64,000 nucleotides of DNA from positions 28,793 through 92,792 of the forward strand of contig JBFWWP010000020.1 of the NCBI GenBank assembly GCA_050246115.1. The letters are read 5' to 3'. Positions 3,268-64,000 of this stretch are shown here, one piece after another. The stretch is from Planctomycetota bacterium (lineage in GTDB: Bacteria > Planctomycetota > UBA8108 > UBA1146 > JAJFFE01). A program made the translations under genes and the position numbers. The notes under the pieces are model-generated. The model was not told where the DNA came from. It ran no database searches and worked only from the letters and a program-made list of their open reading frames with translations. Position 1 is the stretch's first letter. The number at the start of each line of letters is the position of its first letter.

Positions 3268-3984
3268 TTACTTCTTGCTCTTCTTCTTCTTGACCGGCTT
3301 CGGCTCTTCCTTCGCCACGGGTTTCTCGTACCGAGCCTTCAGCTGAAGCTCGAGGACGAACCGCAGGAAGTCCCCTTGGTATGGAGCCTCGAGGTTGACT
3401 CGAGACCATGACGGGTCGGCAATCGCGACGAAGTCGCTGAAGAAGTTGTCCGGCAGAGCGGAGATGTCTACGAGGTTCTTGTAGAAGGCTCGCTCACCGG
3501 TCAGCGCCTTGCGGTACTCGGTCAGTGCCGTCAACTCGGCGCCTTCGGCAAAGCACGTGAGGGTGAGCCGGCCGCCAGTCTGCAGCTTGTTAGCCTCCCA
3601 CTTGTAGTCCGCACGGTCGAGTGTCTCCATCGCCATCTCGGTGATCAGAATCCCCTCGGGGGTCCGCTCGATCAGTTGGTCGAGCTTCGGCGCGAGCAGT
3701 ACGCGGCGCTCTTTGATCTCCAGGATGGCGGTTTCCCGTTCCTTGTAGAACCGGATGTCTTCGTTGATGCGATCGACCTCCTGGGCGTTCTCCTTCGCGA
3801 TGTTGACATCGACTTGGCGCCGGTTCTTGTCGTCCTCGAGGGAACGTACGCTGAACCACAGCCAGAGCACAGCCACACCGAGCAACATGGTGGCAACGAT
3901 GCCACCGATGAGCGTCAGGAACAGCGCCTTTGGCGTTCCTGCTGCGCGTTGCAGTTCGGGGGGGAGCAGGTTGATTCTGATCAC
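3268..3984 (-). CDS. pilN: Type IV pilus assembly protein PilN
   Basis: Starts MIRINLLPPELQ, the canonical PilN N-terminus, then a TM helix and a coiled-coil. Lies immediately downstream of pilM. Confidence 0.8.
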   Translation of the reverse strand: MIRINLLPPELQRAAGTPKALFLTLIGGIVATMLLGVAVLWLWFSVRSLEDDKNRRQVDVNIAKENAQEVDRINEDIRFYKERETAILEIKERRVLLAPKLDQLIERTPEGILITEMAMETLDRADYKWEANKLQTGGRLTLTCFAEGAELTALTEYRKALTGERAFYKNLVDISALPDNFFSDFVAIADPSWSRVNLEAPYQGDFLRFVLELQLKARYEKPVAKEEPKPVKKKKSKK

Positions 3985-4038
3985 GGCTCGAACGACCTTT
4001 CGGAAAGCTGCTGGAGGGTCGAACCCACCATGAGAAAA

Positions 4039-5076
4039 CTACTGGCTATCAAGCAACCGAGCGCCGAGGCCGACGGCGATCGGCAACTGGCTTGCATGCG
4101 CACGCAACTCCTCGACGTCGATCTTCTCTCCGCGTAGCTCGAGGTGCTCGGTGGGATCCCAGACGGTTGCCTTCAGGTCGAACACCCGCTCGAACGCCAT
4201 CTGCAGCCCCGGGGTCTGCACCGCCCCGCCCGACAAGAAGACCTCCGCGACCTCACGGTCGAACTGGTTCTCGAAGTAGTCGAACGACAGGTGGATCTCG
4301 TTGGCCAGGTCATCGAGGACTGGCAGCATCGCGTCCTCGAGCTCGCTCTCCCGGCCCTGAGGGTTGCGCTTCAGTTCCTCGGCTTCGTTTCGCTCCACGT
4401 GGAGTTGCCGGCTGATCGCCTCCGACAGGTCATCTCCAGCGAGGTAGATCTCCCGGGAGAAGTAGGACGTGCTCCCCTTGAGAATGCTCACGGTGGTCTT
4501 GGTGGCACCGACGTCGATCAGCGCGACGACGCGATCGTCATCTTCGACGCGCGGACTGTTCCGGCTCCGTAGTTCGTAGGCGTTGGTCAAGGCGAAGGTA
4601 TCGATGTCGATGGCAACCGGTTGCAGGCCCATTTCCTGGATCAAGTTGACATGCTCTTGCAGCAGCGACTTCTTGGCCGCCACCAGGAGCACCTTCATTT
4701 CGCGCTCCGTGTCTCCATCGCCGTCGAGATCTTCCAGCTTCTGGCCGTCGATCGCGACTTCGTCGACGTCGAACGGGATGTACTTGTCGGCCTCGTAGCG
4801 CAGCGCCCCCTTGAGCTCGCTCTCGTCCATGTGCGGCAAGTTGACGTACCGCACGATCACCGAGCGCCCCGATACTGCGGTACAGACGCGGCGAGTCTTG
4901 ATCGACGCGCGCTCCAGAACTTCCAGAACGGCGGTCGCGGTCTGCTCTGGTGACTGAATCCGAGCGTGACCGAATCCCGTGATCTTCAGGCTGTCCCCAA
5001 CCTGCGTCAGCTCGACGGCCTTGACCTCGCTGCTGCCGATGTCGAGGCCGACGACGGACTTCCTTCTGTTGAACAT
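4039..5076 (-). CDS. pilM: Type IV pilus assembly ATPase-fold protein PilM
   Basis: MFNRRKSVVGLDIGSSEVKAVEL (actin-like/FtsA-fold PilM signature). Start moved to the internal ATG (complement of 5074-5076), because the 13 upstream codons are non-conserved. Confidence 0.8.
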   Translation of the reverse strand: MFNRRKSVVGLDIGSSEVKAVELTQVGDSLKITGFGHARIQSPEQTATAVLEVLERASIKTRRVCTAVSGRSVIVRYVNLPHMDESELKGALRYEADKYIPFDVDEVAIDGQKLEDLDGDGDTEREMKVLLVAAKKSLLQEHVNLIQEMGLQPVAIDIDTFALTNAYELRSRNSPRVEDDDRVVALIDVGATKTTVSILKGSTSYFSREIYLAGDDLSEAISRQLHVERNEAEELKRNPQGRESELEDAMLPVLDDLANEIHLSFDYFENQFDREVAEVFLSGGAVQTPGLQMAFERVFDLKATVWDPTEHLELRGEKIDVEELRAHASQLPIAVGLGARLLDSQ

Positions 5077-46055: not shown

Positions 46056-47714
46056 TCACTGCGCGGCCACGCGGTCCACCAGGGCTCGATCGCCCATGAC
46101 GCCCACGGTCTGTTGGTACAGCGCCAGCCCCCGCTGCCCCCCCAGTTCGGCGCCGCCGCCGGCCCGCCCTGGCCCCCCGTGGAGCATCTGCGGAAGCGCT
46201 ACCCCAGAACCCGGGGCTTGGTCGGCGCCCTTCTCCGAGCCCAGGTAGACTCGGCCGGTGGTGGCCCCGCCGGCACGGAGGTAGCTCGCGATCCAACCGG
46301 CGTCATCCGAGTAGAGCGACGTCACCAGGGTTCCTTGGCTCGCCCCGACGTCTGCGGCCGCCGTGCCCGCGTCGCCATCGTACCCGAGCAGCGTGGCCAC
46401 CGGGCCGAAGACCTCGAGTTCGTGAACCACGCCGGCACCTGCGGAGGCCTCGCGGCGCAACAGGGTGGGGCCAAAGAAGTAGCCCGTACCGGGAGCCGCG
46501 CCGAGTCCATTCACGCGCTCCCCGGTTCCAAGCACGAGCGTGGCCGCGGCGCGCAGACGCTCGACACCGTGCACTGCGGCGTCGAGTTGCTCGCGGGTGG
46601 CCAACGGGCCCATGGTCACCGACGGCTCCGCCGGGTTCCCGACGACCACCCGGGAGAGTCGCTCCGTGAGCTCCCGTTGGATCTCGTCGAGGCGTTCGCG
46701 AGGGGCGAAAATGCGTCTCACCGCCGTGCACTTCTGCCCGGACTTCTGCGTCAGCTCGCGCTCCACATCGCGGTAGAAGAGCGCCAGCGTCTCCGACCCC
46801 TCCTCCACGTCGGGCGCCAGCACGGCAGCGTTCAGGCTGTCGGCCTCCACGTTCACCGCAACGCCTTGGCGAAGGAGGTTGCGGTGCTCGCGAATCCGCA
46901 GCGCAGTGTCCGCCGAGCCCGTGAACGCCACCACGTCCTGGCCTTGAAGGTGATCGAAGGCATCGCCCAGCGAGCCGCACACCAACGACAGCGAGCCGCG
47001 CGGCAAGATGCCCGCCTCGACCACGATCTCCACGCAGCGCTCGGTGAGCCACGCCGTGCTGGTCGCCGGCTTGGTCAGAACCGGCACACCGGCCAAGAGC
47101 GCGCAGGCAGCCTTCTCCGCGAATCCCCAGCAAGGGAAGTTGAACGCGTTGATGTGGATCGCGACGCCTCGCTTGGGGAGTCGCAGGTGTTGCCCCCAAG
47201 AACGGGCCGATCGTCCGAGTTGAACGCCGTCGCCGTCGAGTTGCCACACGCCGTCGCCCAGATCCTTACCCAACGACGCATAGTAGTAGAGGGTCCCAGT
47301 GGCGCCATCGAGGTCGAACTTGGCGTCCTTTCGGGTGGTGCCGCACGTCGCGAGCGACAGCTCGATGAGTTCGTCGCGGCGTTCGTGCAGCGCCTTCGAC
47401 ATGGCCGCCAGGAGCCCTGCACGTTCCGGGATGGTAAGGCTCCGAAGCGCCTCTCCGCCGGTCGTCCGGGCAAAGGCGAGCGCTGCGCCGAAGTCCAGTC
47501 CCGAACTCGACGCCTGGGCAATCGGTTCCTCGGTGCAGGGGTTGATCAAGGGTCGGAAACCGGCCTCGGCCTGCCACCAGCGTCCTTCCACGAAACAACG
47601 CAGGGTTCTCACGGAGAGCCTCCAATCAGCGTGACGAAGCGAAACGGCGCGAACCGCGCGTGCGCGGCTTCCGCGACGCCCCCGATTCTGACCCGAAGTC
47701 CCGAGAGAAAGCAC
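46056..47714 (-). CDS. Aldehyde dehydrogenase family protein, PaaZ/PaaN N-terminal-domain-like
   Basis: FVEGRWWQ...[11 protein letters not shown]...[31 protein letters not shown] matches the ALDH architecture. The true start is probably an internal non-ATG codon near 47640. Confidence 0.65.
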
Positions 47715-47862
47715 CCCAAGATGGAACCTGGCCCAAGGCCGTAGAGGAACGGTCGGCGACGGCCCCCCCGGGCTCCCGGCCCCCGAAGGCGGGGAGCCGG
47801 TTGGAGGCGTCGCGGATCCTGCGACCTCGCCGCCGCGATTCGCCGACCGGAGACCTTAGAGA

Positions 47863-48050
47863 CCTTAGGAGTCGCCCAAGAATAACTTCACCCTCTTGCT
47901 CGTCGCTTCGGGCCATCTTCGACCGATCCGAAAACCTCGTAATCCTCACCGGAACTAAGGCTACGCCTCCGGTTTCGAGCTTTCCGGATCGGCCGAATCT
48001 GACCCAAATCGACGGCAAGATGTCGAAGTTATCGTGGGCGACTCCTTAGG
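47863..48050 (+). mobile_element. MITE-like element, copy A (188 bp, about 27-bp terminal inverted repeats CCTTAGGAGTCGCCCAAGAATAACTTC / GAAGTTATCGTGGGCGACTCCTTAGG)
   Basis: Three near-identical copies in the window (this one, plus 50369-50557 and 51264-51451 in the opposite orientation). Termini are inverted repeats, and internal imperfect inverted repeats (gaccgatccgaaaacc...ggtttcgagctttccggatcggcc) make most of the element a long hairpin. Confidence 0.75.
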
Positions 48051-50085: not shown

Positions 50086-50368
50086 GCGGCGCTCCCTCGC
50101 GCGAGTAGTACTCGCGAATAACCGCTGACCCAGAATTCAGAACGCGACGTTAAGAAAGCGAGCCGGAGGCCTACCCGTCCCAGGCGAACGGACGCCGCTC
50201 GGCGGCGCACGGAACCGGGGCCTCGATCCAGAACCAAACTGGCTCCGATGAAACCAGGAAAGCCAGAATTTCCAAGCTCAATCGGGCGCTCGTCGACCCT
50301 GAGTTGCGATAGATCAAGTCCGGGCGACGTAGAGGCCCGCGTTCCCGTGCTCAACTCGTCGAACGGGC

Positions 50369-50557
50369 CCTTAGGAGTCGCCCAAGAATGACTTCGACAT
50401 CTTGCCGTCGATTTGGGTCAGATTTGGCCGATCCGGAAAGCTCGAAACCGGAGGCGTAGCCTTAGTTCCGGTGAGGATTTCGAGGTTTTCGGATCGGTCG
50501 AAGATGGCCCGAAGCGACGAGCAAGAGGGTGAAGCTATTCTTGGGCGACTCCTTAGG
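50369..50557 (-). mobile_element. MITE-like element, copy B (189 bp; reverse orientation relative to copy A)
   Basis: Near-identical reverse complement of copy A, read directly. Followed by a partial extra agtcgccc. Confidence 0.75.
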
Positions 50558-50599: not shown

Positions 50600-51181
50600 T
50601 CAGGTCCCGGTGCGCGCGCGGCCCAGCAACTCGGTGGTATCGGGGACCGAATCGGCGTGGTCTCCGCGCTCGAGGCGGCGGACGAGGATCGCCTCCGCTT
50701 CGCGGCTCGCTCCGCCTGCGACGAGCGCGCGCGCGAACTCGAGTTCGATCTCGGCGACGTTCCGGTCAGCGACTCCCCAGGCGCCCCGCGCGAGATCGTA
50801 GGCACGGCGCAACGATTCGGCGGCAGCGCCCCAGTCGCCGCGGACGAGGAGGCGTCGACCCAGTGAAGCCCTGGCAGCGACCTCGGACGCCACGTCGGGA
50901 AAGCCCTGGTGATCGAATCCGTGGACCCGAGCGCGCTCGAAGTCTGCGTCCGAGAGCGCGTCGAAGACCGGGTCCTCCGACTCCGCGAGTCCCTGCATCT
51001 GGGCGAAGCGCAGCTGCTCTTGCGCCGCCCGAAACTGGGCGCGCTCCGCTTCGACGTCGGCATTCCTACGAGCCGACGAGAGCCACGCGACCCCAGTCAA
51101 GGATGCAAGCAAACAGAAACCGCACACGAACAGAGCGATGAGAGCGCTCGCTGGCGGTCCAGTCCTGACATCGTCGGCCAC
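50600..51181 (-). CDS. Hypothetical membrane-anchored protein
   Basis: 193 aa with an N-terminal TM helix (LIALFVCGFCLLASLTGVAWL) then a helical/TPR-like region. Flanked on both sides by MITE copies B and C. Confidence 0.35.
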   Translation of the reverse strand: MADDVRTGPPASALIALFVCGFCLLASLTGVAWLSSARRNADVEAERAQFRAAQEQLRFAQMQGLAESEDPVFDALSDADFERARVHGFDHQGFPDVASEVAARASLGRRLLVRGDWGAAAESLRRAYDLARGAWGVADRNVAEIELEFARALVAGGASREAEAILVRRLERGDHADSVPDTTELLGRARTGT

Positions 51182-51263
51182 TGCCTCACCTCCTTCTCCC
51201 CTTGGGTTCCACGGAAACGGTCGTGAACGCCCCCCCGGCTCCGCCAGCGCCCGAGTGCGAAGC

Positions 51264-51451
51264 TCTTAGGAGTCGCCCAAGAATGACTTCGACATCTTGC
51301 CGTCGATTTGGGTCAGATTCGGCCGATCCGGAAAGCTCGGAACCGGAGGCGTAGCCTTAGTTCCGGTGAGGATTTCGAGGTTTTCGGATCGGTCGAAGAT
51401 GGCCCGAAGCGACGAGCAAGAGGGTGAAGTTATTCTTGGGCGACTCCTTAG
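51264..51451 (-). mobile_element. MITE-like element, copy C (188 bp; same orientation as copy B)
   Basis: Near-identical to copy B, read directly. Its end is 1 nt from the stop codon of the downstream lipoprotein gene. Confidence 0.75.
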
Positions 51452-54480: not shown

Positions 54481-55632
54481 TCACCCGCGAACTTGCGCGT
54501 AGGCCCAATCGATCCAAGGGAAGAGTGCCTGCAGGTCGGCGCGCTCGACGGTGGCTCCACCCCACAACCGCAATCCCGGCGGCGCGTCGCGGTAGGAAGC
54601 GATGTCGAACCCGGCCCCTTCCGCCTCGAGCAGTGAGGTGAGTTTCTTGACCACTGCTGCCTGATTCTCGACGCTCTGCGCGCAGAACCATGGATCGGTC
54701 AGACGCAAGCAGATCGACGTGCAAGAACGCACCGCGGGGTCGCGCGCCAGAAACTCGATCCAGGGCGTCCGCTCGACCCACTCGGCAACCGCCGCAAGGT
54801 TCGCCTCGCTGCGCTCGATCAAGGCCGGGGCGCCGCCGATCTCTTCCGCCCAACTCAAACTGTCGAGTACGTCCTCGACGCACAGCATCGACGGAGTGTT
54901 GATGGTGTCGCCCTTGAAGATGGCTTCGTCGAGTTTGCCCTTCTTGACCATGCGGAAGATCTTCGGCATCGGCCAAGTAGGTGTATGGCTCTCGAGACGC
55001 TCCACGGCACGTGGTCCGAGCGCGATCATGCCGTGCTGCGCCTCGCCACCCAACACCTTCTGCCAGGAGTAGGTGATCACGTCGAGCTTGCGCCAGGGCA
55101 TCCGCATGGAGAAGACCGCGGAAGTCGCGTCACAAATGGTCAGCCCTTGCCGACCGTCGGAGATCCAGTCCCCGTGCGGAACCCTCACCCCGGACGTCGT
55201 GCCATTCCAGGTGAAGACGAGATCCCGTTGCGGGTCGTACTGGGCGAGATCCGGCAGCTCCCCGTAGTCGGCCTCCAGAACCTGCACCGCGGGGAGTTCG
55301 AGTTCCTTCAGGATGTCGGTGACCCACTCTCGGCCGAAGGCTTCCCAGCCCGCCACGGCGACGCCCCGCGGTCCCAGCAGAGACCACATCGCCATCTCGA
55401 CGGCACCCGTGTCGGAAGCAGCAACGATTCCCAGTTTGTAGTCGTCGGGGAGCCCCAAGAGCGCGTGCGACCGTTCAATGACCTCGGCCAGCTTGCGACG
55501 GCCATCCTTGGAACGGTGCGAACGACCGACCAGCGCCTGATCGAGAACCCCAGGGTTCCAACCGCGGCGTTTGGCGCAGGGGCCCGATGAGAAGCACGGA
55601 TTGTTCGGCTTGATCGTGGGTTTGATGCTCAT
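54481..55632 (-). CDS. serC: Phosphoserine aminotransferase (long, actinobacterial-type SerC)
   Basis: Internal ATG (complement of 55630-55632) gives [25 protein letters not shown]..., a class V aminotransferase. The upstream 152 codons of the track ORF are Arg-rich and spurious. Confidence 0.8.
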
Positions 55633-55750
55633 GGCGCGAGGATATTGCCCGTCGCCGGGGTTGCCCAGCGAATCCAGGTCGACGGCCGCAGCCGTTTTCC
55701 GTCTTGCGCGCCACGAGTCCGGCCTGCTAAGGCATGAGCGCCGCCGTCGG

Positions 55751-57340
55751 GTGACTTGGCGCACTCCGAGGCGCCTACCCAGAGGTCGGGGCGTTGGAGT
55801 TCCCTGTTGGACTTCATTTCTCGCCCCAGCGACAGGAGCCGCCCTGGACGAAGTCCCCAACACCCGCGTCCGCCTCCGCAACCGACTACCGGTCCGTCGG
55901 GACGGGGACTTCGTATTGTATTGGATGGTCGCGAACCGGCGGCTCGGCTGGAACTTCGCGCTGCAACGCGCGGTCGAGTGGTGCCGTGAACTCGACCGAC
56001 CGCTGATCATCCTGGAGGCCCTGCGATGCGGATACCCCTGGGCCAGCCCCCGCCTCCACCGCTTCGTTCTCGACGGTATGCAATGCAACCGGAGCGCCTG
56101 CGCCGGGTCTTCGGTCCGTTACTATCCGTACGTGGAGCCCGTGCTCGACGCGGGCAAAGGCCTCCTCGAAGCGCTGGCCCAAGATGCTTGCGTCGTCGTA
56201 ACCGATGACTTCCCGTGCTTCATCGTTCCCGCCATGACCCGCGCCGCCGCCGAACGGGTTCCCGTGCGACTCGAGGACGTCGACTCCAACGGTCTGCTAC
56301 CCATGCGCTCGACGGAGCAGGTGTTTCCGACGGCGTATGCCCTGCGCAGATTCCTGCAGAAGCACCTCGCGGAGCACCTGGCTGCCCCGCCGGCCGAGAA
56401 TCCGCTCGGCCCCCTGAAACGACGCGGCATGGCGACGCTCCCGCGTGAGGTCGAGCGCCGCTGGCCGGAGGCGTCGGATGAACTCCTCGCGGGAAGCCCG
56501 GCCGCGCTCGCCGCACTGCCTCTCGACCACAGCGTCCCGGTGACCTCGACGCGCGGCGGTGCGGACGCCGCTGCGCGCGCGATGACCGAGTTCCTCGACC
56601 ACCGGCTCAGCCGCTATGCCGAAGACCGCAATCAACCGGAGCGAGCGGTCACGAGTGAGCTGTCCCCGTACCTCCACTTTGGACATGTGTCGGTGCACCA
56701 AGTCGTCGACGAGGTGCTGGCGCGCGAGGAGTGGTCGATCGAAGACCTCCCCGCGACGGGCAACGGCTCACGAGCTGGGTGGTGGCAGGTCGGTGAGAAC
56801 GCCGAGGGCTTCCTCGACGAACTCGTCACTTGGCGAGAACTGGGGTTCAACCTGTGCGCGCACCGAGACGACTACGCGCGCTACGAGTCGCTCCCGGACT
56901 GGGCTCAGAAAACGCTCGACGAACATGCGAGTGACCCTCGCGAACCCAGCTACGACCTGGAGCAGTTCGACCGCGCAGCGACCCACGACGAACTTTGGAA
57001 CGCGGCCCAGACCCAACTGGTGCGGGAGGGACGAATCCACAACTATCTTCGCATGCTATGGGGCAAGAAGATCCTCGAGTGGAGCCGGACGCCCAGGGAC
57101 GCCCTGGCGACCATGATCGAGCTCAACAACCGTTACGCCCTCGACGGCCGCAACCCCAACTCCTACAGCGGGATCTTCTGGGTGCTCGGCCGCTATGACC
57201 GGCCCTGGGGACCGGAGCGCAAGGTGTTCGGGAAGATCCGTTACATGTCGTCGGAGAACACCGCGCGCAAGGTCAGCCTCCGGGGTTACCTCGAGCGCTA
57301 CTCGAGCGCGGCGGCGCGTGGCTGCCTCGACTTCGGTTGA
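55751..57340 (+). CDS. phr: Deoxyribodipyrimidine photolyase (class II CPD photolyase-like)
   Basis: [21 protein letters not shown] (N-terminal), [10 protein letters not shown], and a C-terminal FAD-binding region [18 protein letters not shown]...[29 protein letters not shown]. Start uncertain; an in-frame GTG at 55751 is proposed. Confidence 0.75.
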
Positions 57341-57595
57341 AGTTCCGGTCCTCCCGCGCCCGGTCCAGGACCAACCCGCCCCCCGGGCGCTCCTCAGGGA
57401 GCTGAATCCGGGGCGCCCGGGACCACGAACCTTCCCGGGAACCCGCCGGCGAGCCGCCACTTGCGCCTCGACAAACGGCCCGCCACACCCGACGCTCCCG
57501 GCGGCAGGTGCGATGGGGGAGTTCCCGTGCGACCTGAACCCTGAGCCGAACCCAGGCCGAGCGCACCCCGCGACCGGCGAGAGCGGAAAGCAACC

Positions 57596-58552
57596 ATGCA
57601 CCCCGATCCCCCCGCTCCGGCGACCCGCCTCCAGAGGTTCTGGCGCCCGCTCGCGAGCTTCTTCGACGGCAGGGCCGACGAAAACGCGACCCTCGACCCG
57701 TCGATCGCGGACCGTGTGGACTGGATCCGCATCCTCCCGTTCTTGGGAGTCCACGTGTTGTGCCTCGGGGTCGTTTGGGTGGGTTGGAGTGCGACCGCAG
57801 TAGCCGTGGCCGTCGGCCTGTATGCGGTACGGATGTTCGCCATCACGGCGTTCTATCACCGCTACTTCTCGCACCGCAGCTTCAAAACCTCGCGTCACGT
57901 GCAGTTCCTCGGCGCGCTCCTCGCCAACATGGCCGGCCAACGTGGCCCGCTCTGGTGGGCGGCACACCACCGACATCACCATCGTCACTCCGACACACCG
58001 GCGGATGCCCACTCTCCTCGCGAACGCGGCTTCTGGTGGAGCCATGTGTTCTGGTTCACCTGCCGCCGAAACTTTCGTACGCGCTGGGAACTCGTGCGCG
58101 ACCTCGCGAAGTTCCGGGAGCTCCGCTTCCTCGACCGTTTCGACTGGATCGCCCCGAGCCTGCTGGCGCTCGGGCTCTACGCGATCGGCGTGGGGCTCGA
58201 AGCCTGGGCTCCCACGCTCGGTACCAGCGGACTCCAGTTGCTCGTCTGGGGCTTTGGCGTGTCGACCGTCGCGGTGTTCCACGCCACCTGTACGATCAAC
58301 TCGCTGGGGCATCTCTTTGGCCGCCAACGCTACGCAACCCAAGACGAGAGCCGCAACAGCGCCCTGCTCGCGTTCCTCACTCTGGGCGAGGGATGGCACA
58401 ACAATCACCACCACTACCCGGCCGCGACCCGCCAAGGTTTCTACTGGTGGGAGATCGACCTCACGTACTACGTGCTCCGCGGGCTCGCTTCACTCGGCGT
58501 CGTTCGCGAGCTGAGGCCCGTCCCGGAGCGGGTGCGAGCGCAGCGACCATGA
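57596..58552 (+). CDS. Membrane fatty-acid desaturase (acyl-CoA/acyl-lipid delta-9-type, three His boxes)
   Basis: His boxes HRYFSHRS, HHRHHHRHSD and HNNHHHYP, with multiple TM helices. Confidence 0.8.
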   Translation: MHPDPPAPATRLQRFWRPLASFFDGRADENATLDPSIADRVDWIRILPFLGVHVLCLGVVWVGWSATAVAVAVGLYAVRMFAITAFYHRYFSHRSFKTSRHVQFLGALLANMAGQRGPLWWAAHHRHHHRHSDTPADAHSPRERGFWWSHVFWFTCRRNFRTRWELVRDLAKFRELRFLDRFDWIAPSLLALGLYAIGVGLEAWAPTLGTSGLQLLVWGFGVSTVAVFHATCTINSLGHLFGRQRYATQDESRNSALLAFLTLGEGWHNNHHHYPAATRQGFYWWEIDLTYYVLRGLASLGVVRELRPVPERVRAQRP

Positions 58553-59796
58553 GAATCGCCGTCGTTGGTTCCGGCATTTCGGGCCTGGTCTGCGCCTACC
58601 TCCTCAGCCGGCGGCACGAGGTCCAGGTCTTCGAAGCGCAGGACACCCTTGGTGGCCACACCCATACCGTGGCGGTCGAGCACGCCGGCCAAGAGTACGC
58701 CATCGACACTGGCTTCATCGTCTACAACGAAACCAACTACCCCAACTTCACCCGCTTGCTGAATGAGCTCGCCGTACCCACCCAAGCGACCGAGATGAGC
58801 TTCAGCGTCCGCAGCGAGCGGCACAACCTCGAGTACAACGGTGCCTCCCTCACGACGCTCTTCGCCCAGCGGCGTAACCTCGTGCGTGTCGGCTTCTGGC
58901 GCATGCTTCGCGACATTCTGCGATTCTATCGGTCGGCTCGGTCGCTCTTGTCCACTGCCGATGAGACACTCACCCTCATCGATTACCTGCAGGGTCAGGG
59001 TTATTCGCGTGAGTTCATCGACTGGCACATTCTGCCCATGGGCGCAGCCATCTGGTCGACCGATCTCGTCGGGACGGGACAGTTCCCGCTCGTGACCTTC
59101 CTCCGCTTCTTCGAGCGCCATGGCTTCCTTCGCGTCAGCGGTCGTCCGCAGTGGCGCACGATCGTTGGCGGATCTTCGACTTACGTGCGCGCACTGATGC
59201 CGCGCATCGGCCGAATCCACACCCGGCGACCGGTCGCTCGGATCCGTCGCCAAGCCGAGGGGGTCGACCTCGTCACCGTCGCTGGGGACCACTCGCACTT
59301 CGACGCCGTGGTACTCGCGACGCACTCCGATCAGGCCCTCCCCCTGCTCGCCGACGCGACACCGGCCGAGCGCGAGATCCTCGGATCCATGAGTTACCAA
59401 CAGAACGAAGTCGTCCTCCACACCGACACTCGCCTGCTTCCCCGGAGTCGCCGGGCTTGGGCCAGCTGGAACTATCACCTGACCGAATCCAATCGCGGCC
59501 TACCCACGGTCACCTACAACATGAACCTGCTACAGCGTCTGACCGCACCGGTAACCTTCTGCGTGACCCTCAATCGAAGCGACGCGATCGACCCGGAGAA
59601 GGTGATTCGAACCCTCCAAGTGCATCACCCCCGCTTCGATCGAACCGCGGTTGCTGCGCGCAAACGTCACGCCGAGATCAATGGGCGCGCGAATACCTAC
59701 TACTGCGGCGCCTACTGGGGCGACGGTTTCCACGAGGACGGCGTCAACAGCGCCCTCGCGGTGTGCCGGCACTTCGGAGAGGAACTCAGCCCGTGA
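58549..59796 (+). CDS. NAD(P)/FAD-dependent oxidoreductase (amine-oxidase-like)
   Basis: MRIAVVGSGISGLVCAYLL is an N-terminal dinucleotide-binding motif. ATG overlaps the desaturase stop (ATGA). Confidence 0.8.
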   Translation: MRIAVVGSGISGLVCAYLLSRRHEVQVFEAQDTLGGHTHTVAVEHAGQEYAIDTGFIVYNETNYPNFTRLLNELAVPTQATEMSFSVRSERHNLEYNGASLTTLFAQRRNLVRVGFWRMLRDILRFYRSARSLLSTADETLTLIDYLQGQGYSREFIDWHILPMGAAIWSTDLVGTGQFPLVTFLRFFERHGFLRVSGRPQWRTIVGGSSTYVRALMPRIGRIHTRRPVARIRRQAEGVDLVTVAGDHSHFDAVVLATHSDQALPLLADATPAEREILGSMSYQQNEVVLHTDTRLLPRSRRAWASWNYHLTESNRGLPTVTYNMNLLQRLTAPVTFCVTLNRSDAIDPEKVIRTLQVHHPRFDRTAVAARKRHAEINGRANTYYCGAYWGDGFHEDGVNSALAVCRHFGEELSP

Positions 59797-60578
59797 AATC
59801 ATGCCTCTATGAAGGCCAGGTTCGCCACCGCCGATTCGGCCCGGTGGCGCACGACTTCACGGCGCGCGTGCTGCTGTTCTACGTGGACCTCGCGGAAGTA
59901 GACGCTGGCCTGCTCCCGTGGATCAACACCGAGCGGCGCTGGGCCCCGTTTCGCCTGCTGCGCGCGGATCATGTCGGCGGTCCCGCCGAGGCGCTCGAGG
60001 AGTCGATTCGGACGCTCGTCGCGAAACGTACCGGACGCCACCCCACCGGACCGATTCGCTTGCTCACGCACCTACGCTGTTTCGGTCACTGCTTCAATCC
60101 CGTGAGCTTCTTCTACGTCTTCAGTGCCGATGATCGGACGGTCGAGACCATCGTCGCCGAGGTCAGCAACACACCTTGGCGCGAACGCCACCTCTACCTC
60201 GTGACCCCCACGGCCGACTCGACCGGGAGCCGTCTGCGAGAACGTTTCCCCAAGGAGTTCCACGTCTCGCCGTTCATGGGGATGGACCTCGAGTACGACT
60301 GGAGCTTCTCCGCACCCGGCCGGCGCCTGGCAGCACACTTCGTCAACTTGGAGGCTGGGACGCCACTCTTCGATGCGACCTTGTCGCTCACCCGCAAACC
60401 CTGTTCACGCCGCACCCTGCTCAGCGCCATGGTGCGCTACCCGTTCTTGTCGCAGCGGGTACTGTTGGCCATCTACTGGCAGGCGTTCCGCCTGTGGTGG
60501 AAGAAGGCGCCCTTCTTTCCCCACCCCAAACATCGCCAACCCAACCCTTTACCGGATCCCGATGGGAGAGCCGCATGA
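59793..60578 (+). CDS. DUF1365-family protein
   Basis: VKSCLYEGQVRHRRFGPVAHDFTARVLLFYVDL is the typical DUF1365 N-terminus. GTG overlaps the preceding stop (GTGA). Confidence 0.7.
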   Translation: MKSCLYEGQVRHRRFGPVAHDFTARVLLFYVDLAEVDAGLLPWINTERRWAPFRLLRADHVGGPAEALEESIRTLVAKRTGRHPTGPIRLLTHLRCFGHCFNPVSFFYVFSADDRTVETIVAEVSNTPWRERHLYLVTPTADSTGSRLRERFPKEFHVSPFMGMDLEYDWSFSAPGRRLAAHFVNLEAGTPLFDATLSLTRKPCSRRTLLSAMVRYPFLSQRVLLAIYWQAFRLWWKKAPFFPHPKHRQPNPLPDPDGRAA

Positions 60579-61915
60579 GTGCACCGTCGTCGCCACCTAC
60601 GACTTCACCCATCCACTCCTCGCGCCGGGTGTCGTGGCGCCATCAGCTCGCGCGGCGAGCGCTCTTCGAGCGGCTGGCCCACCTCGAACACGGCGAGCTC
60701 ACCTTCCACGAGGGCGGCCACACGTGGACTTTCGGGCGCCGTACGCGGGACCTCGACGTGAGCGCCCACGTATTCGTCGAACGTCCGGAGCTCTACTCGC
60801 GCCTCGCGCTCGGGGGCACCGTCGGCGCCGCCGAGGCCTTCATGGCCGGGTGGTGGCGCACGCCCCACTTGGTCGAACTGGTGCGAATCCTGGTGCGCAA
60901 TCGCCGAGTGCTGGTCGGACTCGATGGGGGCCTGGCGCGCGTCACGAGCCCACTTCTCAAGTTCGGACACTGGTTGCGTGCCAACACGCGCCGCGGCAGC
61001 CGCCGCAACATCGCGGCGCACTACGACCTGGGCAACGACCTCTACGCCCTGTTCTTGGACGACACCTGGATGTACTCGTGCGGATTCTTCGAAGACGACA
61101 CGAACGACTTGCGCGCCGCTTCGATCGCCAAGAACGAACGGATCTGCGTCAAGCTGGCCCTGGGCCCCCAGCACCATGTCCTGGACATCGGCGGGGGCTG
61201 GGGAGGATTCGCCCTGCACGCAGCGACTCGCTTCGGCTGCAAGGTCACCATGACGACCATCAGCCAGCAACAGCACGAGCTGGCTTGCGAACGCGTACGG
61301 CGCGCGGGCCTCGAGCAACGCATCACGGTCCTCAACGCGGACTATCGGGATCTACGCGGCACTTTCGACCGCGTTGTCTCGATCGAGATGATCGAGGCGG
61401 TCGGGCATTCGTTCCACGACGCGTACTTTCGTTGCATCGGCGATCGCTTGACGGCGGACGGAATGGCCCTCGTCCAAGCGATCACCGTCAGTGACCAGCA
61501 CTACGACGAGGTGCGCACCGGAGTGGACTTCATCAAGCGCTACATCTTCCCCGGAAGCTGCCTGCCATCCGTGCGCCGAATGCTGGACTGCGCGGGCCGG
61601 GTGTCCGACCTGCGGCTGTTTCACCTCGAAGACCTTACCCCCCACTACGCCCTGACCCTGGCCCATTGGCGACGTCGCTTCGTGGCCGCACACGAAGCCG
61701 TGCGCGCCCTGGGCCATGGCGAGGACTTCGCGCGGATGTGGGAGTTCTACCTCGCATACTGCGAAGGAGGCTTCGCCGAGCGCTTTACTGGGCTGGCACA
61801 GTTGGTGTTCACCAAGCCCAGCTGCCCGCGTTCCCCGATTGCTCCACCGACGCGAGAGCTGGCCGGCTTGCGCCAGCCCGGTGCGCCCCCCGCGGTAGTC
61901 CGGGAACACGCATGA
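60575..61915 (+). CDS. cfa: Cyclopropane-fatty-acyl-phospholipid synthase family SAM-dependent methyltransferase
   Basis: AHYDLGNDLYALFLDDTWMYSCGFF...VLDIGGGWGGFALHAA (SAM motif I)...YFRCIGDRLTADGMAL. ATG overlaps the DUF1365 stop. Confidence 0.85.
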   Translation: MSAPSSPPTTSPIHSSRRVSWRHQLARRALFERLAHLEHGELTFHEGGHTWTFGRRTRDLDVSAHVFVERPELYSRLALGGTVGAAEAFMAGWWRTPHLVELVRILVRNRRVLVGLDGGLARVTSPLLKFGHWLRANTRRGSRRNIAAHYDLGNDLYALFLDDTWMYSCGFFEDDTNDLRAASIAKNERICVKLALGPQHHVLDIGGGWGGFALHAATRFGCKVTMTTISQQQHELACERVRRAGLEQRITVLNADYRDLRGTFDRVVSIEMIEAVGHSFHDAYFRCIGDRLTADGMALVQAITVSDQHYDEVRTGVDFIKRYIFPGSCLPSVRRMLDCAGRVSDLRLFHLEDLTPHYALTLAHWRRRFVAAHEAVRALGHGEDFARMWEFYLAYCEGGFAERFTGLAQLVFTKPSCPRSPIAPPTRELAGLRQPGAPPAVVREHA

Positions 61916-62448
61916 AGATCGTGAACTTCGTCTCGTTCCAGATCGGATGGTTCGCGTGCGTCCTCGGGTCCGCCTACGGCCAGCCCGTGGTCGGTGTCGT
62001 GATTGCATTCGCGTTGATCGCGTTGCACTTCGGCCTGGCCGGCGACCGCCGGGCAGAGTCGGTGGTCGTGATCGCCGCGACGGCCCTCGGCTGGGTCGCC
62101 GAATCGCTGTACCACCGCTTCGGACTCACGACCTTCGACGCGAACGGTCCGTGGCTGGCGACGTGCCCCCTCTGGATGGTCATGATCTGGGCGCTCTTCG
62201 GCACGACGCTAAACTCATCGCTAGAGTGGCTGCAATCGCGACGGTGGCTTGCCGCGGCGTTCGGCGCCGGGAGCGGTCCGCTCGCGTACTTCGGCGGCGA
62301 GCGGCTCGGCGCGCTGCGGCTGAGCGACGACCGTGTAGCGGCGACTCTCGCCATCGCGACCACCTACACGATCGCGCTGCCCGTGCTGCTCACCTTGGCG
62401 AATCGCGTCCGTCAGCAACCCATGGCCGGACCAGGAGGGCGCCCATGA
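61912..62448 (+). CDS. DUF2878-family small membrane protein
   Basis: MKIVNFVSFQIGWFACVLGSAYGQP..., four predicted TM helices. ATG overlaps the cfa stop. Confidence 0.6.
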   Translation: MKIVNFVSFQIGWFACVLGSAYGQPVVGVVIAFALIALHFGLAGDRRAESVVVIAATALGWVAESLYHRFGLTTFDANGPWLATCPLWMVMIWALFGTTLNSSLEWLQSRRWLAAAFGAGSGPLAYFGGERLGALRLSDDRVAATLAIATTYTIALPVLLTLANRVRQQPMAGPGGRP

Positions 62449-63239
62449 GTGGTCCCGTCCTCACCGGCATCCTTGGGGTGATTGGCGGCATGATTGCCGT
62501 CATGACCGTCCTGTGGGTGGTTCAGTGTCGAACCCGGAACGCGGGCTGGGTGGATGTCGGCTGGGCCGCGGGCCTCGCAGCGGCCGCAACGTTCTACGCG
62601 AACTGGTTCGATGGCGACCCCACGCGCCGTGCTCTCATGGGGTTCTTGGGTACCTTGTGGGGCGCGAGGCTCGCGCTCCACCTCGCACGGCGAGTCGCTG
62701 CCGAACCCGAGGATGGACGCTATCGCCGCATGCGGGAGTACTGGGCCGGTACCGCGGACCGCAACTTCCTGTGGTTCTTCCTTGCCCAGGCGCTCCTCGT
62801 GGCGCTGTTCTCGCTCCCGTTCCTGGTGTGCGCGCGGGCGGACACCGCACTGGCCCCCGGCTGGCAAGTCGCCGCGATCGTGGTCTGGCTCACCGCGGTC
62901 GGCGGTGAGTCGATCGCCGACTGGCAACTCGCCCGCTTCCGCGCCAACCCCGCGAATCGCGGTCGCACCTGCAGGCAGGGACTCTGGCGCACGAGCCGCC
63001 ACCCCAACTACTTCTTCGAGTGGCTGCATTGGTGGAGCTACGTGCTACTCGCGATCGGTGCCCCCGGCGCGTGGCTCACCCTCCTCGGGCCGGTCCTGAT
63101 GTTCGCATTCCTCTACCGGGTGACCGGCATCCCCTACACCGAGCAGCAAGCGCTGGCGAGTCGCGGGGACGACTATCGCGACTATCAACGCACGACCAGC
63201 GCCTTCTTCCCCTGGTTCCCGAAGGGAGACGCGAAGTGA
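62445..63239 (+). CDS. DUF1295-family membrane protein (steroid 5-alpha-reductase / ICMT-like fold)
   Basis: Multi-TM, with GLWRTSRHPNYFFEWLHWWSYVLLA, the typical DUF1295/ICMT C-terminal motif. ATG overlaps the preceding stop. Confidence 0.65.
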   Translation: MSGPVLTGILGVIGGMIAVMTVLWVVQCRTRNAGWVDVGWAAGLAAAATFYANWFDGDPTRRALMGFLGTLWGARLALHLARRVAAEPEDGRYRRMREYWAGTADRNFLWFFLAQALLVALFSLPFLVCARADTALAPGWQVAAIVVWLTAVGGESIADWQLARFRANPANRGRTCRQGLWRTSRHPNYFFEWLHWWSYVLLAIGAPGAWLTLLGPVLMFAFLYRVTGIPYTEQQALASRGDDYRDYQRTTSAFFPWFPKGDAK

Positions 63240-64000
63240 ATCTCGGCCTCCGCCTCGCCGAGCGCGGCTACGTACCGGACCGCCTGGTGCGCTATGGCAT
63301 TCGACACTTGCTCCGGCGCCGACTCCGCGAGGAACGCCTGCGCAACCGTGAAGCGCTGCTTCGCGAGTTCCGCGCGAGCCCGGTGGCGGTCGCGACTCAC
63401 GCTGCGAACGAACAGCACTATGAACTCCCGGCCGCCTTCTTCGAACTCGTCTTGGGTCCGCACCTGAAGTACTCGAGCGCGTGGTGGGACGATACGACGG
63501 CGAATCTGGAGGACGCCGAAGCGGCAATGCTGCGGCTCACGTGCGACCGCGCGATGCTCCGGGACGGCCAACAGATCCTGGAGCTCGGGTGCGGCTGGGG
63601 ATCCTTGACCCGTTGGATGGCCCGACACTATCCCCGGAGCCAGATCACCGCAGTCTCGAACTCGCACTCGCAACGAGCGTTCATCGAAGCGCGGCTGGCG
63701 GCGGAGAATCTCGGCAACGTCCGTGTGATCACGGCCGACGCGAACGTCTTCAGGCCGGACCAGAGATTCGACCGAGTGGTGTCGGTCGAAATGTTCGAGC
63801 ATCTCCGAAACCCCGAACTGCTGCTACGCCGGATTGCGGACTGGCTGCTCCCCGCAGGTCGCCTCTTCGTTCACGTCTTCTGCCACCGGAACCTCACGTA
63901 CCTGTTCGGGACTCAGGCCGACGACGATTGGATGGGGCGCCACTTCTTCACCGGCGGGATGATGCCCAGTCGCGACTTGTACCCGGCCCTCGATCATCCG
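63236..64000 (+). CDS. Second CFA-synthase-like SAM-dependent methyltransferase, 3' end beyond the window
   Basis: GTG 63236 overlaps the preceding stop (GTGA). HAANEQHYELPAAFFELVLGPHLKYSSAWW...ILELGCGWGSLTRWMA (SAM motif I)...FDRVVSVEMFEH. No stop before the window end. Confidence 0.75.
   Translation, partial: MNLGLRLAERGYVPDRLVRYGIRHLLRRRLREERLRNREALLREFRASPVAVATHAANEQHYELPAAFFELVLGPHLKYSSAWWDDTTANLEDAEAAMLRLTCDRAMLRDGQQILELGCGWGSLTRWMARHYPRSQITAVSNSHSQRAFIEARLAAENLGNVRVITADANVFRPDQRFDRVVSVEMFEHLRNPELLLRRIADWLLPAGRLFVHVFCHRNLTYLFGTQADDDWMGRHFFTGGMMPSRDLYPALDHP

Follow-up and report, generated by a model that had tools for sequence, protein, structure and literature searches.

At the end of a 64,000-nt window of a Planctomycetota bacterium genome (contig JBFWWP010000020.1 of assembly GCA_050246115.1, positions 28,793-92,792, forward strand), a photolyase gene, phr, is followed by an operon of lipid-modification genes that continues past the window end. 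We consider it likely that these genes constitute a photo-oxidative-stress module, in which a class II photolyase is combined with an operon of at least nine genes that would remodel phospholipid acyl chains by the furan fatty-acid (FuFA) route, under the control of an extracytoplasmic function (ECF) sigma factor and anti-sigma factor resembling mycobacterial SigK and RskA. The pathway chemistry and its control by a stress-responsive ECF sigma factor are already established in proteobacteria; the locus described here adds a new phylum and a fuller gene set.

An operon of at least nine genes beside a photolyase gene

The phr gene (55751-57340, + strand) is separated by a 256-bp gap from seven lipid genes, also on the + strand. 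In order these encode a desaturase (57596-58552; Pfam FA_desaturase PF00487, 7.7e-24), a flavin adenine dinucleotide (FAD) oxidoreductase (58549-59796; Pfam Amino_oxidase PF01593, 2.4e-27, and NAD_binding_8), a DUF1365 protein (59793-60578; PF07103, 7.8e-75, full length), a first methyltransferase of the CMAS family (CMAS1, 60575-61915; Pfam CMAS, 3.2e-79), a DUF2878 protein (61912-62448; PF11086, 1.2e-38), a DUF1295 protein (62445-63239; PF06966, 8.4e-73, with Steroid_dh at 6.8e-7) and a second methyltransferase (63236-64000; Pfam CMAS, 6.6e-32), which the window end clips at residue 255. All six junctions between these genes are 4-nt start/stop overlaps, ATGA at 58549, 60575, 61912 and 62445 and GTGA at 59793 and 63236. 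A purine-rich, Shine-Dalgarno-like stretch no more than about 20 nt upstream of the start is clear at four or more of the six junctions, and at 58549 the sole GGAG lies about 22 nt upstream. Because 4-nt overlaps are an ordinary operon signature in GC-rich genomes, they demonstrate operon organisation here and nothing beyond it.

The operon was followed past the window on a 4.9-kb contig from Logan, L001, which shows 2 mismatches to the window across a 2,478-bp overlap and is duplicated by L055 from a second sequencing run. On L001 the second methyltransferase reaches its full length of 346 aa (1714-2754), and a 100% identical protein is recorded in NCBI from a Planctomycetota metagenome-assembled genome. 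A Chalcone_3 gene and then a DUF4345 gene follow, each joined by a further 4-nt overlap. The first encodes a protein matching PF16036 (4.9e-31) with an apparent N-terminal signal peptide, and the second a membrane protein. The operon therefore has at least nine genes. An earlier reading of the window, made from the sequence alone (hereafter the sequence-only reading), had described a photolyase followed by a seven-gene operon with overlaps at all six junctions. The gene families, their order and every overlap were confirmed; the count of seven was too low. At 120 bp after the DUF4345 gene, L001 encodes an ECF sigma factor (213 aa; 3926-4567), whose gene is overlapped (ATGA) by an anti-sigma gene seen for 106 aa.

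Conservation was measured in 53 loci recovered with the DUF1365 protein as query from a set holding one genome for each species (best identity 54%). These loci span Sumerlaeota, Acidobacteriota, Gemmatimonadota, Planctomycetota, Latescibacterota, Nitrospinota, Bdellovibrionota, Gammaproteobacteria and many Solirubrobacterales. The order FAD oxidoreductase-DUF1365-CMAS is kept in 49 of them, with the FAD oxidoreductase gene directly upstream of DUF1365 in 52, the position in which the two genes overlap in the window. The remaining genes are found less often: a desaturase precedes the FAD oxidoreductase in 14-16 loci, the second methylase and DUF1295 are each present in 20 (adjoining one another in 14), and DUF2878 is present in 4. 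All seven genes stand in the window order in L004 (Acidobacteriota), L015 (Ahniellaceae) and L023 (Planctomycetota), and the DUF2878 integral membrane protein gene holds the same position in these three and in L056. L056, a closer relative, has the order SRPBCC, FAD oxidoreductase, DUF1365, CMAS, DUF2878, DUF1295, second methylase, Chalcone_3 and DUF4345, followed by a sigma factor, an anti-sigma factor, a B12-binding protein and a fasciclin protein. What would be a full route, with its own desaturase and a second methylase, thus recurs as one operon in Planctomycetota, Acidobacteriota and Gammaproteobacteria, and this packaging may make it a compact choice for producing furan fatty acids in a heterologous host.

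ECF sigma factor, candidate promoter motif and photolyase

The RpoE-ChrR regulon, which responds to singlet oxygen, has phrB, cfaS/ufaM and RSP1087-1091 as its conserved core (PMC5507510, PMC6852236). The sequence-only reading, which had pointed to this regulon in Rhodobacter, suggested a search for an ECF sigma/ChrR pair. An ECF sigma/anti-sigma pair was indeed found just past the window end, together with a promoter-like motif within the window; the regulator, however, appears SigK/RskA-like and not ChrR-like, and the photolyase is of class II, unlike the class I PhrB of Rhodobacter. Compared with solved structures, the sigma factor is about equally related to M. tuberculosis SigK (4nqw, 4.5e-19), its best match, and R. 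sphaeroides RpoE (4.8e-17). It falls under the curated cut-off of every NCBIfam sigma model, including PRK09646 (SigK; 120.9 bits vs 226) and the best-scoring PRK12519 (131 vs 222). SigK carries a conserved pair of redox-sensing cysteines (PMC7826278). The sigma factor studied here contains no cysteine, so a redox disulfide of the SigK kind is impossible.

The N-terminal 106 aa of the anti-sigma factor contain no ChrR-type HxxxCxxC motif (the zinc-binding anti-sigma, or ZAS, motif) and have no PDB or Pfam match. In L056 the sigma orthologue is 70% identical, and the anti-sigma factor downstream of it has an RskA_C domain (PF10099) and an N-terminus 39% identical to the window-adjacent fragment. 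An RskA-type anti-sigma gene also lies directly downstream of the sigma gene in most of 80 sigma-homologue loci from metagenomes. By these comparisons the regulator is more like mycobacterial SigK-RskA than RpoE-ChrR. The promoter of the ECF11 group is TGATCC-N16-CGTA (PMC5507510), and this sequence was not found upstream of phr, the desaturase gene or the sigma gene; together with the lack of the ZAS motif in the anti-sigma fragment, this led us to reject ChrR-type regulation.

Comparison by eye of the regions upstream of phr and the desaturase gene had revealed GAATCC followed by CG(A/T)(A/T) 16-17 nt on. The exact form, GAATCC-N16-CGAA, occurs once in the 64-kb window (0.22 expected anywhere in it), at 57404-57429 (+), in the 256-bp gap and 166 nt upstream of the desaturase start, and is the predicted promoter of the lipid operon. 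It is related to the ECF11 motif but would represent a distinct specificity. In the Planctomycetota locus L023 an exact copy stands 4 nt before the desaturase match. L056 has 5 exact copies against 0.05 expected, all between called genes, and the copies that precede its sigma, B12-binding, fasciclin and hypothetical genes are oriented towards the gene that follows. An independent test was provided by the 80 metagenome loci (526,570 bp), which were retrieved with the sigma protein as the only query: they contain 22 exact motifs against 1.9 expected, while spacers of 12-15 and 17-21 nt give 0-4 each. Among these sites, 7 precede the sigma gene and 5 precede fasciclin genes; others stand in front of a class II phr gene (L094), an SRPBCC gene and a conserved hypothetical gene. 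A weight matrix built from the metagenome loci alone ranks 57404-57429 first in the window and the L023 site first in L023.

We infer from this enrichment that the motif is the promoter read by the SigK-like sigma factor. Transcription of the operon would start from GAATCC-N16-CGAA, and the RskA-like membrane anti-sigma factor would restrain the sigma factor. No sigma-70 promoter or intrinsic terminator was found around phr and the desaturase gene or after the DUF4345 gene, and none of the latter between the lipid operon and the sigma gene; transcripts running on from the operon into the sigma genes would therefore bring about positive autoregulation, of the kind described for the mycobacterial Rv0449c-sigK locus. 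The desaturase 5' untranslated region of about 160 nt shows no structured leader or riboswitch (fold z-score +0.46).

The sigma gene also has a conserved element of its own, at L001 3880-3915 (window-equivalent ~65402-65437) and at 2415-2450 of L057, a relative with 73% identity. Its sequence is TTGCGC-N17-TACAGT or TACATT, alternatively CTTGCG-N16-CGTA, and is distinct from the regulon motif; at 8/12 positions of the sigma-70 consensus, it does not appear in the output of a standard promoter scan.

The product of phr (529 aa) is, as judged from its family matches, a class II cyclobutane pyrimidine dimer photolyase. It matches NCBIfam TIGR00591 (phr2, class II) at 1.6e-109, with a score of 367 that is under the curated cut-off of 550; other photolyase classes give 4e-9 or weaker. 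Residues 50-519 align with the solved class II enzymes 8oet and 2xry at ~1e-67, and GTG at 55751 is the sole in-frame start. Despite the TIGR00591 match, the protein has no Pfam-A hit at E <= 0.001, and annotation by Pfam alone would overlook the gene. A candidate ECF-type promoter of phr, GAATCC-N17-CGTT, lies at 55670-55696 (+), 55 nt before the GTG start in the serC-phr intergenic region. The sequence-only reading had suggested checking for a promoter motif in front of both phr and the desaturase gene; the exact copy stands before the desaturase gene and only this degenerate copy before phr.

Several observations weigh against a single regulon of this kind. The motif was first seen in the window itself, which leaves the L023, L056 and metagenome results as the independent ones. 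By the weight-matrix scan the L056 lipid operon has no high-scoring motif in front of it, so that membership of the operon in the regulon is not universal, and the sigma gene has the promoter-like element of its own described above. The phr site departs from the consensus in both its spacer (N17) and its -10 element (CGTT), which makes its assignment tentative, and it falls under threshold with the weight matrix. A photolyase gene is near the lipid cluster in only 2 of the 53 related loci. These last points, with the 256-bp gap and the operon's own promoter-like site, would fit a photolyase that is a mere neighbour, transcribed independently and not co-regulated with the lipid operon. We regard this explanation as somewhat unlikely. 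Against it, L094 carries, beside a homologous sigma gene, a class II phr orthologue (50% identity) whose tblastn match is preceded at a distance of 65 nt by an exact GAATCC-N16-CGAA, and a photolyase is part of the RpoE-ChrR core regulon of alpha- and gammaproteobacteria (PMC5507510). The photolyase probably shares the regulon of the lipid operon through a weaker site. The photo-oxidative-stress membrane-remodelling island that the sequence-only reading had proposed is supported by the FuFA-type core, the ECF sigma factor and the operon motif, with the reservation that adjacency of a photolyase is rare.

Elsewhere, the motif precedes fasciclin, B12-binding (CarH-type module), SRPBCC and conserved 191-aa hypothetical genes in L056 (12171-17679), L066, L076, L088, L094, L106 and L135. 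This distribution suggests a regulon connected with light and containing fasciclin proteins, as the mycobacterial one contains MPT70/83; through the motif, FuFA, photolyase, fasciclin and B12-binding genes would be tied to a SigK/RskA-type sigma factor. In the window no second sigma homologue was found, and no homologue of the fasciclin, B12-binding or SRPBCC proteins. Two near-matches in the window have no plausible target that we could find: one at 46892-46917 (+), with a single mismatch, lies on the strand opposite a covering aldehyde dehydrogenase gene, and the other, at 50915-50941 (+) with an N17 spacer, lies among short overlapping open reading frames (ORFs) between palindromic repeats. 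In L057 an exact motif at 806-831 falls inside the coding region of the second methylase; it may be a promoter for the Chalcone_3 and DUF4345 genes, or may have arisen by chance.

Predicted chemistry of the lipid enzymes

In the characterised pathway, R. sphaeroides UfaM methylates cis-vaccenate to 11-methyl-12-trans-18:1, UfaD (RSP1091) makes the 10t,12t diene and UfaO (RSP1090), a DUF1365 protein, forms the furan using O2; in R. palustris the adjacent RPA2571-2570-2569 genes are necessary and sufficient for furan synthesis, and FufM (RPA0924) adds a second methyl group (PMC7380195). Gene position cannot by itself identify UfaM, which counts against an assignment by synteny: in R. sphaeroides, FuFA synthesis does not require RSP1089, the CMAS gene that comes right after ufaO, and UfaM is encoded elsewhere (PMC7380195). 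Evidence was therefore sought in the sequence of CMAS1.

CMAS1 matches E. coli Cfa (6bqc) at 2e-54 with 34% identity, and shares its two-domain architecture, including a Cfa-like N-terminal domain. The residues E239, I268 and Y317 are kept, whereas positions 236, 240 and 266 (E. coli Cfa numbering) read E/A/Q in place of G/H/H. E236, A240 and Q266 are common to all 42 UfaO-linked CMAS1 orthologues. A histidine occupies position 266 in all seven solved cyclopropane synthases aligned (those of E. coli, L. acidophilus and A. aeolicus, and CmaA1, CmaA2, PcaA and MmaA2), and MmaA4, the sole non-cyclopropanating member among those aligned, has E and Q at 236 and 266. We take H266 of E. coli Cfa to be one of its bicarbonate ligands.

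A validated enzyme was available for comparison in the UfaM of Halomonas, whose gene yields 11-methyloctadec-12-enoate when expressed in E. coli (PMC12089945). In the sequences of Table S1 of that paper, Halomonas UfaM reads SVEMIEAVG and MLQAIT at the two regions concerned, where its Cfa paralogue reads SIGMFEHVG and FLHTIG; CMAS1 reads SIEMIEAVG and LVQAIT. Identity of CMAS1 is 43-45% to Halomonas UfaM and 27% to Halomonas Cfa, in alignments fragmented by optical-character-recognition damage to the reference DNA. Given the E/A/Q residues in the orthologues and in the validated Halomonas enzyme, 60575-61915 is called a UfaM-type, S-adenosylmethionine-dependent acyl-chain methylase, predicted to release a methyl-branched olefin and not to form cyclopropane rings. 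E236/A240/Q266 would then separate UfaO-linked, UfaM-type methylases from true cyclopropane synthases, both of which public annotation currently labels as the latter.

The other core enzymes are assigned by family. The FAD oxidoreductase (58549-59796), whose best solved relative is LkcE (1.2e-37, full length), is a predicted UfaD-like, FAD-dependent acyl-chain desaturase of the amine-oxidase fold. The DUF1365 protein (59793-60578) belongs to the family of the characterised UfaO proteins RSP1090 and RPA2570 (PMC7380195), and is proposed to be a UfaO-like, O2-dependent furan-ring former. The desaturase (57596-58552) is by family a membrane fatty-acid desaturase of the delta-9, stearoyl-CoA desaturase (SCD) type; its best solved relatives are mouse and human SCD1 (3.7e-27), and its histidine boxes HRYFSH, HRHHH and HNNHH align with all three boxes of mouse SCD1.

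The second methyltransferase appears to belong to a coclaurine-N-methyltransferase (CNMT)-like branch of the CMAS family: among solved proteins the plant CNMTs come closest (6gkv, 3.6e-67, full length), with E. coli Cfa at 8e-28. A FufM-type role is likely, as FufM is reported to share 37.9% identity with Arabidopsis AT4G33110/LIME1 (PMC10940516), a gene that carries the annotation 'coclaurine N-methyltransferase, putative' (PMC3388832). A singlet-oxygen-induced Chlamydomonas protein, CFA2, is likewise listed as CPLD27, coclaurine N-methyltransferase (PMC4067076). On the other side, this assignment is indirect, drawing on two literature statements and the PDB ranking, and the FufM (Q6NBA4) termini read from primers, MSGLASL (N) and RLKPA (C), matched none of the best 120 listed homologues.

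Among the accessory proteins, DUF1295 (4.7e-5 against the isoprenylcysteine carboxyl methyltransferase (ICMT) structure 4a2n) is placed by its matches in the steroid-reductase/ICMT membrane superfamily. A DUF1295-like fungal protein, UsgR, is an ene-reductase (PMC8597850), and the DUF1295 protein of the window may likewise be an ene-reductase, or else a membrane methyltransferase, that works with the second methylase. According to the R. palustris deletion primers in the supplement of PMC7380195, the end of RPA0923 would overlap the beginning of fufM by ATGA, an arrangement that resembles the DUF1295/CNMT-like methylase junction in the window (GTGA at 63236). An RPA0923 deletion was constructed, and no phenotype was reported for it (PMC7380195). 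A DUF2878 gene of V. cholerae, VC1123, is listed in the regulon of the photolyase regulator PhrR (PMC12971978).

Taken in sequence, these predictions outline a route. The delta-9-type desaturase would make a cis-monoene on a saturated chain, and the UfaM-type methylase (60575-61915) would convert it to a methyl-branched trans-olefin. The UfaD-like flavoenzyme would then add a conjugated second double bond, the UfaO-like DUF1365 protein would close the furan ring with an oxygen atom taken from O2, and the CNMT-like (FufM-like) methylase would add a second methyl group. Since the substrate is probably a delta-9 monoene, the position of the ring may differ from that in 9M5. DUF2878, DUF1295, the secreted chalcone-isomerase-like protein and DUF4345 would be conserved accessories, with double-bond reduction and lipid binding or handling as candidate roles.

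An alternative that we find improbable is that the operon makes mid-chain methyl-branched fatty acids, perhaps saturated or hydroxylated, by chemistry like that of tuberculostearic acid, and not furans. The methylases would then make methyl or methylene branches, DUF1295 and/or the flavoenzyme would adjust saturation, and DUF1365 would do something else. The G236E and H266Q changes that CMAS1 shares with MmaA4, whose product is hydroxylated and methyl-branched, would suit such chemistry, but the same signature is found in the validated Halomonas UfaM. The superfamily of DUF1295 and the ene-reductase activity of UsgR fit it too, as does the conserved pairing of DUF1295 with the CNMT-like methylase, often apart from the core; the mycobacterial sigK locus encodes UfaA1, and PMC7509140 and PMC10540498 make no mention of furan fatty acids there. 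The full UfaD and UfaO pair argues for furans, being conserved with the methylase in 49 of 53 loci, and UfaM, UfaD and UfaO were sufficient for furan formation in both organisms tested (PMC7380195). It is very improbable that CMAS1 is an ordinary cyclopropane synthase in a loose collection of membrane-stress genes with no shared pathway: public annotation labels both window methylases 'cyclopropane-fatty-acyl-phospholipid synthase family', E. coli Cfa is the best solved relative of CMAS1 and NCBIfam Cfa models are its top hits, yet these score 258 bits, far under their curated cut-offs of 400-650, the histidine of position 266 is Q in 42/42 orthologues, and nine genes with eight 4-nt overlaps in an order kept across phyla argue for one pathway.

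The FuFA route remains our preferred reading, and several claims of the sequence-only reading are borne out by it. The FAD oxidoreductase-DUF1365-CFA synthase core matches UfaM/UfaD/UfaO clusters in families, in the R. palustris gene order and in the UfaM signature of CMAS1; the three-histidine-box desaturase was correctly recognised; and the two CFA-synthase-family methyltransferases are distinct, one UfaM-type and the other CNMT-like. A multi-step acyl-chain modification beyond cyclopropanation is likewise supported.

Known systems and other features of the window

Compared with the FuFA pathway of Cereibacter (Rhodobacter) sphaeroides and R. palustris, the locus has the same three families in the order of RPA2571-2570-2569, the UfaM-type signature and a second methylase that is CNMT-like, as FufM appears to be. 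It adds the delta-9-type desaturase, DUF2878, DUF1295, Chalcone_3 and DUF4345 in one translationally coupled operon. It differs in lacking a short-chain dehydrogenase/reductase gene (RSP1087), in its Planctomycetota host and in its probable substrate, a delta-9 and not a delta-11 monoene; the pathway is predicted here from sequence. The likeness to the RpoE-ChrR (ECF11) system lies in an ECF sigma factor apparently placed over a photolyase and FuFA genes, a similar N16 promoter and a sigma factor as near to RpoE as to SigK. The differences are the anti-sigma factor, which is not ChrR-like, a class II photolyase in place of the class I PhrB, and the presence of the motif in front of fasciclin and B12-binding genes where relatives of the sigma factor occur.

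The mycobacterial sigK locus consists of genes for two unknown proteins, UfaA1, another unknown protein, SigK and RskA (PMC10540498). Autoregulation of this locus acts through the Rv0449c promoter, sigK also has a separate promoter that does not depend on SigK, and the remaining members of the regulon are the fasciclin-fold proteins MPT70 and MPT83 (PMC7509140, PMC10540498). The inducing signal of the regulon in M. tuberculosis is still described as unknown (PMC7509140). Both loci have lipid genes, which in mycobacteria include that for the CMAS-family UfaA1, followed by a sigma factor and an anti-sigma factor that is, or here appears to be, of the RskA type, and fasciclin genes stand behind the motif in relatives of the window sigma factor as MPT70/MPT83 do in the SigK regulon. 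Rv0449c, Rv0448c and Rv0446c we take to be amine oxidase, DUF1365 and DUF1295 proteins, respectively. The window sigma factor differs in falling under the SigK cut-off and in having no cysteines, and the photolyase, desaturase and CNMT-like methylase are additional here. The motif would bridge the Rhodobacter singlet-oxygen regulon and the mycobacterial SigK regulon.

The same families are co-induced or co-localised in eukaryotes, among the SAK1 singlet-oxygen genes of Chlamydomonas (PMC4067076) and the lipid-droplet proteins UFAM/D1, UFAO1 and LIME1 of Arabidopsis (PMC10940516). The shared set comprises CFA1, the CNMT-like CFA2/CPLD27, DUF1365, DUF1295 and a fasciclin-like protein; these genes are eukaryotic, unlinked and under other regulators.

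A wider proposal can be made, although we think it rather doubtful as a whole. DUF2878, DUF1295, the CNMT-like methylase, the chalcone-isomerase-like protein and DUF4345 would form an extension of the FuFA pathway, for example with steps of reduction and a further methylation and with transfer of an oxidation-scavenging lipid to the periplasm or outer leaflet, and the module together with photolyase, fasciclin and B12-binding genes would represent an ancestral light/singlet-oxygen regulon of the SigK/RskA clade. If this were true, the inducing signal of M. tuberculosis SigK would be lipid photo-oxidation or peroxidation.

Upstream of the module, serC (54484-55632, - strand; NCBIfam 3.5e-194) is divergent from phr across a 118-bp intergenic region. 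The ispG gene lies farther upstream beyond serC, and no regulator was found on that flank. Horizontal transfer of the operon was considered and rejected, as its codon-position GC is native, with third-position GC of 0.79-0.85 equal to that of the genes for EF-G, IspG and SerC. No Rfam family was matched anywhere in the window.

Three intergenic copies of a repeat of 170-190 nt, 97-98% identical, occur elsewhere in the window at 47861-48032 (inverted), 50367-50556 and 51262-51451, flanking a PKD/dockerin protein gene and a 193-aa ORF. Each copy folds into a near-perfect long hairpin (minimum free energy -122.8 kcal/mol, z = -11.5), and the repeat looks like a palindromic element of the miniature inverted-repeat transposable element (MITE) or repetitive extragenic palindromic (REP) kind.

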